Below, in pieces: positions 1,266-63,921 of a DNA stretch of 64,000 nucleotides. The stretch comes from Octopus vulgaris (taxonomy: Eukaryota), in assembly GCA_951406725.2 (NCBI GenBank), contig OX597820.1, positions 75,640,001 through 75,704,000 of the forward strand, in the 5' to 3' direction. The position numbers and the translations under genes are program-made. Within the stretch, counting starts at the first letter, position 1. Every line of letters begins with the position of its first letter. Under the pieces are notes generated by a model. The model did not search any database and was not told the DNA's origin. It was given only the letters and a program-made list of their open reading frames with translations.

Positions 1266-1412
1266 ATATACAGGACTATACTGTTTCATCAAGAGAAATA
1301 GCTTCCTGAAGATTTCTCTTATATATATACTCCTTCTATATAATAAATTAATTTTACTCTGCTATACAGTACTTACTTACTGTGGTTAACCCCGAATCAA
1401 CCCGGGACCTAC
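1266..1412 (+). mobile_element. Short Penelope-like element with partial hammerhead and inverted 5' segment (sister of 63487-63680)
   Basis: Shares agcttcCTGAAGAtttc, ctccttctata..taaatta..tttactctgcta and the gtggttaaccccga.tcaacccgggaccta terminus with 63487-63680. Flanked by (TA)n. Confidence 0.7.
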
Positions 1413-1605
1413 ATATATATATATATATATATATATATATATATATACATACATACATATATGTATATATATATATATATATATATATATATTTTTTGTA
1501 TTTGGGGATGGTCATGTTGCCAGTTTAGCCAATAAAAACACACGCACTATATATCTGCTGATAATTTGCTTCAGCTTTATTTTATCTTATATATTAATCG
1601 TATTT

Positions 1606-1651
1606 CCGCTAGAGTTCTTTCGTCACACATCTGTGACCTCATCAGTGGTCC
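1606..1651 (-). ncRNA. Hammerhead ribozyme-like motif with degenerate stem I, in a short repeat (~1495-1710)
   Basis: Minus strand reads cca CTGATGA g GTCACA gatg TGTGAC GAAA gaa CTC tag. Core and 6-bp stem II are perfect; stem I has a mismatch. Confidence 0.6.
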
Positions 1652-1844
1652 TTTGCTTTCTTCTTTCTTATTTGTGTGTCTTTCCTTACTAATGATCAGC
1701 CATTTTTGTATATATATATATATATATATATATATATATATATATATATATATATATATATATATATATGTATATATGTGTATGTATGTATATTTAAACG
1801 GCCCAGATCACAATATTTCCCCTTAACGGAACACTGATCCGTTG

Positions 1845-2012
1845 AATGCTTCAAGGCCAGCAGGTTTGAGGGAAGAATTAGAGTTAAGTCGATTTCACTG
1901 ACCATAGAGCTTAAGTGGTATTTTATCTTACCGACCCCTTCTGTGGAATTTGGACTGAGAACGTAAAGGTTTGGAAGAAATGCTGCTACGGATTTTGTCT
2001 CAGCTTGTCACC
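1845..2012 (-). mobile_element. Degenerate SINE family B
   Basis: ttaagtcgat...cgacccc...ggaatttggactgagaacgtaa matches the family B body. Confidence 0.55.
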
Positions 2013-2169
2013 TTAAACAACTGCGTCATCATACGCTCTCTTCTTTCCTCGCCTTTACAGATCTCAAGACGTAATAGTCTTTTTTTCTTTTCACGTTTAC
2101 AGCGCAGAGACGTTGCTTGGCGGAAGTGTTAGCGCATTGGCGAGTCTATTAGCGTCTTGCGGGCTTCCA

Positions 2170-2447
2170 GATGATCTGATCTGATCAACAGAACAGCCTG
2201 CTCATTAGCTTAATGTATAAGTGACTGAGCATTCCACAGACACGTAGTTCGGAGGGAGCTTCAGCGTGACACAAATTGTGAAAAGGATGACCCCTTGAAA
2301 TAGAGGTGCTACTTAATTTTTGCAACTGAGCGGAGTGAAACGACGTAAAATACGGAGTAATGTTCAAGGACATAATGCACTATGAGGAATTGAACTCAGA
2401 GCCTTACTATCGGGAGATGAAAACCCTAACCACTAAGCCACGCCTCT
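2170..2447 (-). mobile_element. tRNA-derived SINE family C
   Basis: Minus strand starts gcgtggcttagtggttaggg (A box) and gagttcaattcc (B box). Body is homologous to 36313-36612 and 45512-45772. Confidence 0.75.
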
Positions 2448-3086
2448 TCATGTTTTAAGAGTATACGCCGCGGCAGAATTTCTGGTTCTTTTATCCTGAG
2501 TTTAGTTCCCGCTGATTCTGGCCTTAGGATTCGGATTCGACGAATAATTACCAGACAAAAATGGAGTAGATTCTTCTTCAGACGTCTGCAAGTTATTTTC
2601 ACTCATTTTCCTCTCAAGGAGACACAGGTCTCGAGATAGCCGTGATGATTCCGGTATAAAATACTGAAACACACCGTTAAATTACGGCACAGCCCCAATG
2701 GTTTCATCCCTTATCAAAGTCTATGAATCATATTATCCCATAGAGACACATCAAATATACGTACGCATATTTCACAGTTACATTGTAATCACTGGCTCAC
2801 AGATTAACACACAGATACAAAACCGTATTTAGTTGTGTGTATGTATATATATTTCTACAATTCTACATATTCTCAGACAAACACATATGTAAATGAATAT
2901 ATATATTATATATGTATACGTTTATATGTTTATATATGCGTGTGTGGGCGTGCAAGTCTGTATACATTTATCTGTGTATATATATATATATATATATATA
3001 TATATATATATATATATATATATTAAAGACATGTACATGATCAACAAGAAGGTGTATTAGTTTGACGCTTGGGAAAATGAATAAGT

Positions 3087-3122
3087 CTTTTACGTTTCGA
3101 GCCGACGCACTTCAGCAGAAAG
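3087..3122 (-). ncRNA. Minimal hammerhead ribozyme motif (CUGNUGA family), copy 1
   Basis: CTTT CTGCTGA a GTGC gtcg GCTC GAAA C GTA AAAG: stem I CTTT/AAAG, palindromic ACGT stem III. Lies in a ~3025-3180 repeat also found near 23703 and 52056. Confidence 0.65.
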
Positions 3123-61024: not shown

Positions 61025-61451
61025 ATCTAACTCCAACATTGCTGAGTTCGCTGAATTACACTCGATACACCTGTACGAAAATTCGTTTTTCAAAAAGAGG
61101 TGTTTTGGGGAATTCAAAAAAAGACAAAAGGTTCATAAATATGGAGACCTGAGAACTGAGATTATTAAAATGTGGCAGCTACGAGAGTCAAACATAGAGG
61201 TTATCCTTATTTTCATCGGAGCAATGGGTTCACTACTACTACTACTACTACTACTACTACTACTACTACTACTACTACTATGTTTGACTCTCGTAGCTGC
61301 CACACTTTAGTAATCTCAGTTCTCAGGTCTCCATATTTATGAACCTTTTCTCTTTTTTTTTGAATTCCCCAAAACACCTCTTTTTCAAAACGAATTTTCA
61401 TACGGCTGTATCGAGTGTAATTCAGCGTACTCAGCAATGTTGGAGTTAGAT
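61025..61451. repeat. ~173-bp inverted duplication containing an RLE fragment
   Basis: Arms are 61025-61197 and 61278-61451. The + strand encodes KVHKYGDLRTEIIKMWQLRESNIEVILIFIGAMGS. The spacer contains (ACT)n. Confidence 0.9.
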
Positions 61452-61935
61452 GAAATACCTAGACTTATATTATTCATAGATTTCTTACATTGTGTACCAG
61501 CAACAGGTGGAAGCTCTATCATCACGGCTCTTTTCCCAGTGATAAATTTTTCATAATTTTTTCTCCTCCACTTTGTTTAAACTGCTGCGTTTACTTTCTC
61601 ATATTTTCTTGTTTATTGCTGATTGCAGTGATTATTTTGCCAACATTTATTGAATAATCATTTTGTATGCGATTCTTGCATGAATGAGTTATAGAACATG
61701 AGTATCTGATAACTCTTAGACGACGGCAGGGTCATTTACTGTCAGGTCAGCGTTCTCTGATTTTCCTTTTCCTATATTTAAGCTTATTCCTCGAAAATTC
61801 AGCTTTCTCTTGATTCAGAAAAATAAGTAGGCCCCATCAACATGTTATATATGCATATATATATATATATATATATATATCAAACATATAGTACGTGCGT
61901 GTATGTATATACATATATATTCATATATATATATA

Positions 61936-62309
61936 TACTCTTTTACTCTTTTACTCTTTTACTTGTTTCAGTCATTTGACTGCGGCCATGCTGGAGCACC
62001 ATCTTTTTAGTACTTATTCTATCGGTCTCTTTTTGCCGAACCGCTAAGTGACGGGGACCTAAACACACCAGCATCGGTTGTCAAGCAATGCTAGGGGGAC
62101 AAACACAGACACACAAACACACATACGCATATATATATACATATATACGACAGGCTTCTTTCAGTTTCCGTCTACCAAATCCACTCACAAGGCATTGGTC
62201 GGCCCGGGGCTATAGTAGAAGACACTTGCCCAAGATGCCACGCAGTGGGACTGAACCCGCAACCGTGTGGTTGGTTAGCAAGCTACTTACCACACAGCCA
62301 CTCCTGCAT
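61936..62309 (-). mobile_element. SINE family A (young, small internal deletion)
   Basis: Reverse complement of 62659-63069. Confidence 0.9.
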
Positions 62310-62658
62310 ATATACATACTTGAATACGTGCATGCTTACATGCATATAGGTAATATATATATATATATATATATATATATATATATATATATATATATAT
62401 ATATATATATATATATATATATATATATATATATATATATATATATATACACATACGCACACACAGACTCACAAACATGCAAACACACATACGCCCATAA
62501 AAACTCACAAACAGTAACAAATGAATATGCAGAATGCATACATACAAACGCACACATACATGCGTTTATATATAATTATATATATATATATATATACTCC
62601 AGAACTTTCTACTTTCCTCTGCATTAGGTTTCGCATCTTCAGTACTTCGTATATATAT

Positions 62659-63069
62659 AGGCGCAGGAGTGGCTGTGTGGTAAGTAGCTTGCTAACCAAC
62701 CACATGGTTCCGGGTTCAGTCCCACTGCGTGGCACCTTGGGCAAGTGTCTTCTACTATAGCCTCGGGCCGACCAAAGACTTGTGAGTGGATTTGGTAGAC
62801 GGAAACTGAAAGAAGCCAGTCGTATATATATATATATATATATATATGCGTGTGTGTTTGTGTGTCTGTGTTTGTCCCCCTAGCATTGCTTGACAACCGA
62901 TGCTGGTGTGTTTATGTCCCAGTTACTTAGCGGTTCGGCAAAAGAGACCGATAGAATAAGTACTGGGCTTACAAAAGAATAAGTCCCGGGGTCGAGTTGC
63001 TCGATTAAAGGCGGTGCTCCAGCATGGCCGCAGTCAAATGACTGAAACAAGTAAAAGAGTAAAAGAGTA
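62659..63069 (+). mobile_element. Full-length SINE family A
   Basis: ggcgcaggagtggctgtgtggtaag (A box), gggttcagtcc (B box) and (gtaaaaga)n tail. Confidence 0.9.
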
Positions 63070-63486
63070 ATATATATATATATATATATTTACTCTTTAT
63101 CTTATATTAAACTTTTAATACTTTTTGATAGTTTAAAAAAAAATAATAAATAAATAAATAAAAAAATATAAAAATATAAAAAAATAAAAAATAATATATA
63201 TTAATAAAAAAAATAATTAAATAAAATAATAATAAAAATATTATATATGTTTATAATTTATAAGTTTAAATTATTAATTTAAATATTTAAAAAAATTTTA
63301 ACTTTAATTTAAATATTTTAATTGGATTTTTATATTTTATATTTTATATTTTTCATATATTTTTTAATTAATTTTATTTCTATTTATTGGCTTATGATTT
63401 TCCCTGTTTGATTTGCCTAATAGTGGTTTTATCTCTAATTTAATATAATATATATATATATATATATATATATATATATATATATA

Positions 63487-63680
63487 TTATTTTATAGAAG
63501 GAGCTTCTACAGGACTAGAACTGTTTCATTCAGGTGAAATCTTCAGGAAGCTGGCTGATTTCACCTGAATGAAACAGTTCTAGTCCTGTAGAAGCTCCTT
63601 CTATAAAATAAATTACTTTACTCTGCTATGTATTGAGTACCTTATTTACTGTGGTTAACCCCGACTCAACCCGGGACCTA
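63487..63680. mobile_element. Short Penelope-like element with 55-bp perfect inverted repeat
   Basis: Arms are 63487-63541 and 63557-63611. Same 3' terminus as 1266-1412. (TA)n flanks. Confidence 0.8.
63502..63552 (-). ncRNA. Type I hammerhead ribozyme
   Basis: AGCTTC CTGAAGA tTTC acct GAAt GAA ACAG ttctagtc CTGT A GAAGCT. 6-bp stem I, 4-bp stem III and GUA triplet; stem II is weak. Confidence 0.75.
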
Positions 63681-63884
63681 CATATATATATATATATGTA
63701 TGTATGTACATATATATATATATGTATTTATATCGTTTTGGGGATTTGGTTTGCAAGATTCTTTGTGTGAGTTCGTGTGTTGAAGCATATTTTGTTTTGT
63801 CTGGGGAGAGTCAGTCTCTTTTAATGCCTTATTATTTATTACACTCACCGGTAAAGTTTCCACTCAGTTACTTATATATTTTTC

Positions 63885-63921
63885 CTAAAATTTTCGTTGC
63901 GTCTTGCAACCTTTTCAATAG
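63885..63921 (-). ncRNA. Minimal hammerhead with U3-A8 core variant, in a repeat at ~63730-64000
   Basis: CTA TTGAAAA g GTTGC aagac GCAAC GAA AATT T TAG. Confidence 0.65.

Follow-up and report, generated by a model that had tools for sequence, protein, structure and literature searches.

What kind of element leaves hammerhead ribozyme motifs scattered through octopus DNA? The window analysed here is a 64,000-nucleotide stretch of the Octopus vulgaris genome (assembly GCA_951406725.2, contig OX597820.1, positions 75,640,001 to 75,704,000 of the forward strand), with a GC content of 35% and many microsatellites. An initial annotation, made from the letters alone, had listed eleven hammerhead motifs in this window and read them as a diverse set of non-autonomous ribozyme retroelements. 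The motifs belong to eight families, A to H. For families A, B, D, G and H, the evidence argues strongly that the motifs are the hammerhead-bearing 3' ends, or pseudo-long terminal repeats (pseudo-LTRs), of Penelope-like elements (PLEs), and that the units in the window are probably 5'-truncated, mostly decayed insertions. A similar origin is likely for families C, E and F, whose coding parts are yet to be located.

The type I hammerhead layout is present at all eleven sites, given an extra nucleotide after A9, and the sites fall into eight dispersed families, as the initial annotation had roughly estimated: A (3087, 23795 and 52147), B (1606), C (14225), D (14738 and 63885), E (21322), F (37087), G (50322) and H (63502). 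The stem sequences differ between the eight families and the pairing is kept. Helix III, described earlier as mostly palindromic or nearly so, is ACGT in A and G and AATT in D. Its palindrome is ACAGCTGT in relatives of F and ACTTCGAAGT in relatives of C, and E is near-palindromic (ACTC-T-GAGT). Helix III is non-palindromic in B (2 bp with a 2-nucleotide loop) and in H (4 bp with an 8-nucleotide loop). The (TA)n surroundings also hold up, since (TA)5 or longer lies within 150 bp of 7 of the 11 sites, compared with 25% of background positions; the family G motif adjoins (AAT)n rather than (TA)n.

The core had been given as CUGANGA, GAAA and NUH at every site, which is correct for a minority. 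The exact core CUGANGA...GAAA...UH is found at four sites only (1606, 21322, 50322 and 63502), and site 63885 has a covariant U3-A8 core. The core is altered at the remaining six: A6C at 3087, G5C with A6C at 23795, A6U at 52147, U4C on a U3-A8 core at 14738, G8U at 37087, and A15.1G with U16.1C at 14225, where the 5' strand of helix I is also lost. Two of the sites with an exact core have a damaged helix, helix I at 1606 and helix II at 21322. A strict structural descriptor that allows the extra nucleotide after A9 is passed only by 50322, 63885 and 52147, and by 63502 when helix II is allowed to be 3 bp. Taking the commonest letter in each column of the family alignments gives a canonical core for B, C, F, G and H, and U3-A8 for D. 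Family A can be read in two registers; the preferred one places helix I immediately next to the core and gives helix II 4 bp, because sister copies show a canonical first box there. Position 6 is then U or C in most copies (U in 13, C in 11 and A in 2 of 26).

The features of the window are listed below. Clade labels were assigned without a tree, from motifs described in PMC8557442 and from BLAST to a 781-amino acid protein discussed further on.

1215..1462, strand not assigned: family H copy with an internal deletion (the remnant annotated near 1299)
1493..1706, minus strand: family B unit; hammerhead 1606-1651, canonical in its core, with one additional G following A9, a helix II of 6 bp, a helix III of 2 bp and damage in helix I; probable Neptune-like PLE 3' end
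3026..3179, minus strand: family A unit; hammerhead 3087-3122, its core changed by A6C and its helix II mismatched at one point; probable Neptune-like PLE 3' end
14186..14258, minus strand: family C remnant; helix I 5' strand lost against (TA)n, A15.1G and U16.1C; link to an open reading frame (ORF) not found
14640..14958, minus strand: family D unit; hammerhead 14738-14774, U4C on a U3-A8 core
21275..21395, plus strand: family E; hammerhead 21322-21355, canonical in its core but weak in helix II, helix III near-palindromic; two relatives only
23703..23879, minus strand: family A unit; hammerhead 23795-23830, predicted to be inactive (G5C and A6C)
37020..37160, minus strand: family F unit; hammerhead 37087-37134, changed by G8U and with its helix III palindrome broken; a test for an ORF link gave no support
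50144..50222, plus strand: family G tRNA-like head; matches to the A-box and B-box of RNA polymerase III (Pol III) promoters, then (AAT)n
50272..50415, plus strand: family G body; hammerhead 50322-50367 with canonical core, every helix intact and ACGT helix III; probable Penelope/Poseidon-type PLE 3' end
52056..52221, minus strand: family A unit; hammerhead 52147-52182 with A6U core and intact helices
63487..63704, mixed arms: family H unit; inverted arm 63487-63557 and 5'-truncated direct 3' end 63557-63704; probable Hydra-type PLE 3' end
63502-63552, minus strand: family H hammerhead, complete in the inverted arm; canonical core, U-U at 10.1/11.1 and 4-bp helix III
63679..64000, minus strand: family D unit; hammerhead 63885-63921, its covariant U3-A8 core intact and its helix III AATT

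To place these counts against chance and against the rest of the genome, the strict descriptor was run on the window and on an unselected sample of sixty 10-kb stretches at round coordinates on contigs C1-C30 (600 kb, not strictly length-proportional). Shuffles (50 of the window and 10 local dinucleotide shuffles of the 600 kb) and two decoy cores served as controls. In the window, three matches over three core types were found, against a mean of 0-0.02 per core in the shuffles. In the 600 kb there were 29 matches, spread over six core types, where a shuffle gave 0-2 for each core and about 0.6 in total, so the comparison with shuffled sequence proposed in the initial annotation comes out in its favour. 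These 29 comprise 14 canonical cores (7 from one tandem array), 2 U3-A8, 4 A6Y, 7 U4C, 2 G3-C8 and no A3-U8; the decoy cores gave no matches. Two observations lean towards chance folding of AT-rich, microsatellite-laden DNA. A scan of the window alone with one core mismatch gave 4 matches, only modestly above the shuffles (mean 0.8, maximum 2), so the case rests on family evidence. Rfam, moreover, does not report the intact family G motif, and no hammerhead family is among the 150 of 271 matches listed for the window. The family evidence is considerable: seven families have many genomic copies of the same fold, the 3-8 pair is C-G, U-A or G-C depending on the family, and helix I covaries within the A group (CUUU/AAAG versus GUUU/AAAC). 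Chance folding is thus refuted for the families and may apply to singletons; as an account of the motifs at large it is extremely improbable.

Profiles of seven window families gave 44 matches in the 600 kb (A 19, B 1, C 1, D 2, F 6, G 10 and H 5, with inverted arms counted separately) and none in a shuffle. Together with the 29 strict matches, this agrees with the large and diverse genomic load that had been proposed. The stated density of one motif per 5-6 kb is right for the window (1 per 5.8 kb); elsewhere the density is lower, with these seven families occurring about once per 14 kb. Extrapolation to 2.8 Gb gives about 2x10^5 copies of the families. Motifs with an intact structure would number about 1x10^5 over all core types and about 4-6x10^4 for the canonical core; these figures are rough because the sample is only 600 kb and the counts are small. 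Genome searches, in which the best 40 matches were scored for each of A, B, C, D, F, G and H, started from 272 to 4,408 first-look candidates, and a search with family E found two genomic relatives.

The link to PLEs comes from the sequence upstream of the motifs. Copies of one family share upstream sequence of graded length, with up to 1.5 kb compared, and mostly share little downstream, which is the signature of 5' truncation. A same-strand remnant of a GIY-YIG endonuclease lies 5' of the motif in 4 of 30 family A copies (E<=1e-3; one of them, L009, belongs to the training set), with a weak fifth, in 4 of 25 family B copies and in 3 of 25 family D copies, where the linker is CX4CxxC, of Neptune type. 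As background, such remnants occur in 5 of the 60 unselected 10-kb stretches, and one of the five lies upstream (5') of a family B copy. In family G, 30 copies were picked by their endonuclease; the tRNA-like head lies just 3' of it in 28 and the hammerhead body just 3' in 28. Long G copies lead into a reverse transcriptase (RT) and endonuclease of the linker-less Penelope/Poseidon type, and this RT matches Pfam RVT_1 with an E value of 1.6e-5, under the curated cut-off. For family H, locus L298 holds, in order, an inverted hammerhead, a 391-amino acid RT-like ORF, an endonuclease with CxCX5C, an untranslated region (UTR) and a hammerhead. A second independent locus, the duplicate pair L300/L301, has the same order. 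The H endonuclease has CxCX5C and CxxC, which according to PMC8557442 are motifs of the Hydra clade, and H is young, with copies that are 99% identical. Inverted 5' copies, a typical PLE trait, are frequent: four of the six long G copies have one, as do many H copies.

The coding part linked is therefore RT plus endonuclease for G and H, and endonuclease for A, B and D. This continuity with ORFs, together with ragged 5' and fixed 3' ends in the five families, indicates that the units of 70-320 bp are truncated PLE copies and not a separate class of retrozymes. The PLE link and the minimal, dimer-type architecture put forward in the initial annotation are thus upheld, with endonuclease remnants 5' of the motif in five families. 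Its general description of the units as non-autonomous ribozyme retroelements is not, as in five of the eight families the sequence passes without a break into coding remnants of PLEs of autonomous type.

An apparently intact, master-type element was also encountered. Loci L248-L255 (for example L251:768-4468) contain a young Neptune-type PLE with an open 781-amino acid RT and GIY-YIG frame, present in eight retrieved loci, and an overlapping upstream frame of 479 amino acids. The full frame was recovered in about 19 of 150 GIY-YIG matches. In L251 a U3-A8 hammerhead-like motif is found in both flanking repeats, in a repeat-ORF-repeat arrangement. Family H had seemed tied to this 781-amino acid family through L057, and the tie was ruled out: the 781-amino acid family has its own U3-A8 hammerhead, and H lies beyond the element's terminal (TA)n. 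About 260 nucleotides past an ORF end at 4294 in L263 there is a PLE 3' motif that by eye is an A3-U8 variant with an ACCGGT helix III; it fails the descriptor.

Within the window no PLE coding sequence was found. Several results weigh against assigning all these units to truncated PLEs. Pfam recognised none of the degenerate endonuclease pieces. Family C has about 1.2 kb of common upstream DNA, with no same-strand PLE coding match in 30 extended loci, and family E has too few copies for an ORF link. An endonuclease adjacent to family F in L307 was a candidate partner, which was ruled out when F was found in none of 29 other copies of that endonuclease within 1.5 kb downstream; same-strand coding matches upstream of F in L205 and L220 are single and not common to the copies. 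Finally, the 5' ends of family G are clustered and not random, for which plain truncation gives no explanation.

Could the units instead be true non-autonomous retrozymes without long terminal repeats (non-LTR retrozymes), 150-400 nucleotides long, whose transcripts are tandem multimers that would be cut into monomers, closed into circles and inserted again in trans with the help of PLE proteins? The lack of a linked ORF for C, E and F would fit. So would an array at another place in the genome (L061), where 359-bp units with identical canonical hammerheads stand in tandem, and a 2026 preprint argues for an origin of retrozymes from PLE pseudo-LTRs (bioRxiv 10.64898/2026.07.22.740005). None of the eight families is arranged in tandem within the window, however, and neighbouring matches in the genome are mostly on opposite strands. 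Long copies of C and F have about 1 kb or more of upstream sequence in common, and five families are continuous with ORFs. For family G, no 3'-to-5' circular joint was seen among the 15 joints listed, with 157 further ones outside that listing. We therefore regard this explanation as improbable and retain truncated PLE copies as the preferred reading.

The array in L061 (L061:2090-4800, C1:20,002,090-20,004,800) consists of five direct and two inverted near-identical 359-bp units between (TA)n flanks, each with a canonical hammerhead and an ACCGGT helix III. It looks like a young non-LTR retrozyme or a tandem pseudo-LTR array.

The clustered 5' ends of family G raise a different possibility. 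In this family the stop codon is followed after about 30 nucleotides by a 75-80-nucleotide segment with A and B boxes, then by (AAT)n and the hammerhead. The A-box pattern is present in 35 of 74 heads and the B-box in 41 of 74, compared with 1 of 370 and 0 of 370 shuffles. The tRNA-like segment in the 3' UTR may thus start Pol III transcripts of about 250-300 nucleotides, which would be retrotransposed by the parent PLE proteins in the manner of a short interspersed nuclear element (SINE). Outside loci selected by endonuclease, 44 heads were found, of which 23 are anchored at the head start, and 20 of these 23 (18 loci) end no more than 9 nucleotides upstream of the head. Three RNA runs have fold-back joints at the head start among their best supported joints, with 259, 175 and 209 reads, and the sequencing depth steps up at the head. 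Such joints also occur in contigs of a DNA-like run, which shows a step in depth as well. Against this proposal, a short palindrome across the head start could alone cause RT snap-back. The other 21 of the 44 heads are unanchored or start inside the head, and three (L063, L086 and L264) reach well upstream; overall, at least four loci extend further 5' than the head. Moreover, 18 of the 23 anchored heads come from loci chosen by body sequence. ARAGORN calls none of the heads at default settings (2 of 74 at 90%), Rfam gives no tRNA match, and the unstranded RNA-seq shows no start pile.

A Pol III start and RT snap-back at the palindrome would each account for the fold-back joints and the 5' clustering, and the choice between them is about evenly balanced. 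A second, SINE-like life cycle of family G is accordingly a proposal with as much for it as against it. Somewhat more tentative is the fuller picture in which a Penelope/Poseidon-type element with a tRNA-derived Pol III promoter in its own pseudo-LTR sheds a SINE-like head-(AAT)n-ribozyme family that is mobilised by its own proteins, while the A6U/C and U4C subfamilies, in tens of thousands of copies, spread alongside. If this is true, family G directly connects autonomous PLEs with SINEs and retrozymes that carry ribozymes, and the spread of A6U/C and U4C means that PLE amplification tolerates a weakened or metal-switched ribozyme. Among the eight families, a true short non-autonomous form is plausible for G only.

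For the families as a whole, truncation of PLE copies suggests the following course, with cleavage as a prediction drawn from the literature. In a full-length or tandem transcript, two minimal hammerheads would pair through their palindromic helix III and cleave slowly as a dimer. The RT and GIY-YIG endonuclease of the element would start copying from the 3' end at a nicked microsatellite, (TA)n or (AAT)n, and reverse transcription would usually stop inside a few hundred bases. We propose that insertions would therefore consist, more often than not, of the 3' tip and its ribozyme. A copy that stands alone or inverted would lack a partner of the same sense and so would drift, which fits the altered cores in 6 of the 11 window copies. 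The three RNA runs, which are fragmented and unstranded, show no start or end pile on family G and are uninformative on cleavage: most reads are 85-95% alike, the strands are about equal, and the depth climbs towards the 3' end as it does in the DNA-like run.

Some core changes are family-wide rather than the result of decay. Most A1 copies have A6U or A6C, and of seven near-identical A2 copies in the unselected sample six have U4C. A near-identical U4C subfamily of the A group is present at L083, L086, L093, L101, L104 and L109, and its near-identity and six copies in 600 kb indicate that this subfamily is young and very abundant, with a non-canonical core. A natural A6C occurs in a phage hammerhead, with lower activity in Mg2+ and a preference for Mn2+, and U4C occurs in a viroid hammerhead, according to the available parts of the literature (further drawn on: PMC6962438, PMC7151607, PMC3088659 and PMC10886601).

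Some other sequences resemble hammerheads. Of the two remnants in the initial annotation, the one near 1299 is the deleted family H copy listed above. The other, at 30754, belongs to another repeat and cannot be parsed as a hammerhead; the repeat to which it appears related, found at window positions 30640-30870 and in loci L018, L063, L070, L143, L148 and L261, has a GAAA box about 25 nucleotides before CUGAUGA, a permuted order with an unclear helix I. Both this repeat and the 30754 remnant were rejected for lack of helix I. CTGAAGA at 60543 and 62642 has only 3 nucleotides before GAAA and lies inside a coding repeat similar to long interspersed nuclear elements (LINEs), so neither is a hammerhead; the LINE-like coding remnant spans 60290-60800 and the surroundings of 62642 on the minus strand, where CTGAAGA mimics the hammerhead first box. 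A hammerhead-like sequence at L082:1665-1725 (plus strand) has a G3-C8 core pair and a 7-bp helix I, in one copy. The window also contains 184-bp two-copy tandem repeats at 4066-4432 and 33975-34326, which we take to be an abundant SINE-like element, and minisatellite arrays of 78 bp and 34 bp at 43631-44387 and 47350-47612.

How do these elements compare with those already known? Searches of the literature, with Repbase, Dfam and subscription journals lying outside them, gave no description of octopus PLE hammerheads or of a tRNA-boxed pseudo-LTR. A 2026 annotation of Octopus vulgaris assigns 6.83% of the genome (191.5 Mb) to 190 PLE families and 15.12% to unknown repeats, and the word ribozyme is absent from the available part of that paper (PMC13282606). 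With 190 PLE families already annotated, the assertion that standard annotation would label these units unknown is doubtful. Published counts include more than 6,000 retrozymes in a coral, about 5,000 in a mussel and up to 120,000 in the axolotl, and 235 Rfam matches in the giant squid.

The octopus motifs are new members of the minimal hammerhead class of PLEs, mostly truncated and decayed, and the general picture is already known from PMC4209133. They share with the minimal hammerheads of metazoan PLE pseudo-LTRs described there the type I fold, a short helix I, the extra nucleotide after A9, G10.1-C11.1, a palindromic helix III and a U3-A8 variant. They also share the occurrence of many heterogeneous families per genome, of mostly solo copies ascribed to truncated PLEs, and of opposite-strand pairs. 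In contrast, the octopus genome appears to hold far more of them, about 10^5 by extrapolation. The published counts, obtained with different descriptors, are about 2,000 plus 1,300 for Schistosoma, 4,000 for coelacanth and 9,000 for Xenopus. The amplified A6U/C or U4C subfamilies are a further difference from that account. Ribozyme-tipped stumps are expected for PLE-rich invertebrate genomes, and this set is a natural collection of variants, with three PLE clades, several core variants and a very young H with a 4-bp helix III, that bears on the open question of whether transposition needs the hammerhead.

As in the endonuclease-containing PLE clades Neptune, Penelope/Poseidon and Hydra (PMC8557442), the octopus elements target (TA)n and have inverted 5' copies and a one-sided tail. 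With respect to the linkers described there, CX4CxxC is found in D and in the 781-amino acid family and is degenerate in A, G has none, and H has CxCX5C plus CxxC before the conserved Glu. Family G departs from the PLEs in the available part of that paper in having a tRNA-like A/B-box segment about 30 nucleotides past the stop codon. Like non-LTR retrozymes (PMC7229834; bioRxiv 10.64898/2026.07.22.740005), the window units are short, non-coding and PLE-related and have a type I hammerhead; those retrozymes are by definition tandem repeats of 150-450 bp, whereas the units in the window occur singly or as inverted copies, and five of the families extend into ORFs. Short G copies resemble the schistosome Sm-alpha and Sj-alpha SINE-like elements (reviewed in PMC6765202) in the order of promoter and hammerhead. 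Unlike in Sm-alpha and Sj-alpha, the G head lies inside the 3' UTR of a PLE that codes for RT and endonuclease, and the G hammerhead is minimal and palindromic. The route from an autonomous PLE to a SINE-like ribozyme element can be tested directly in this family.

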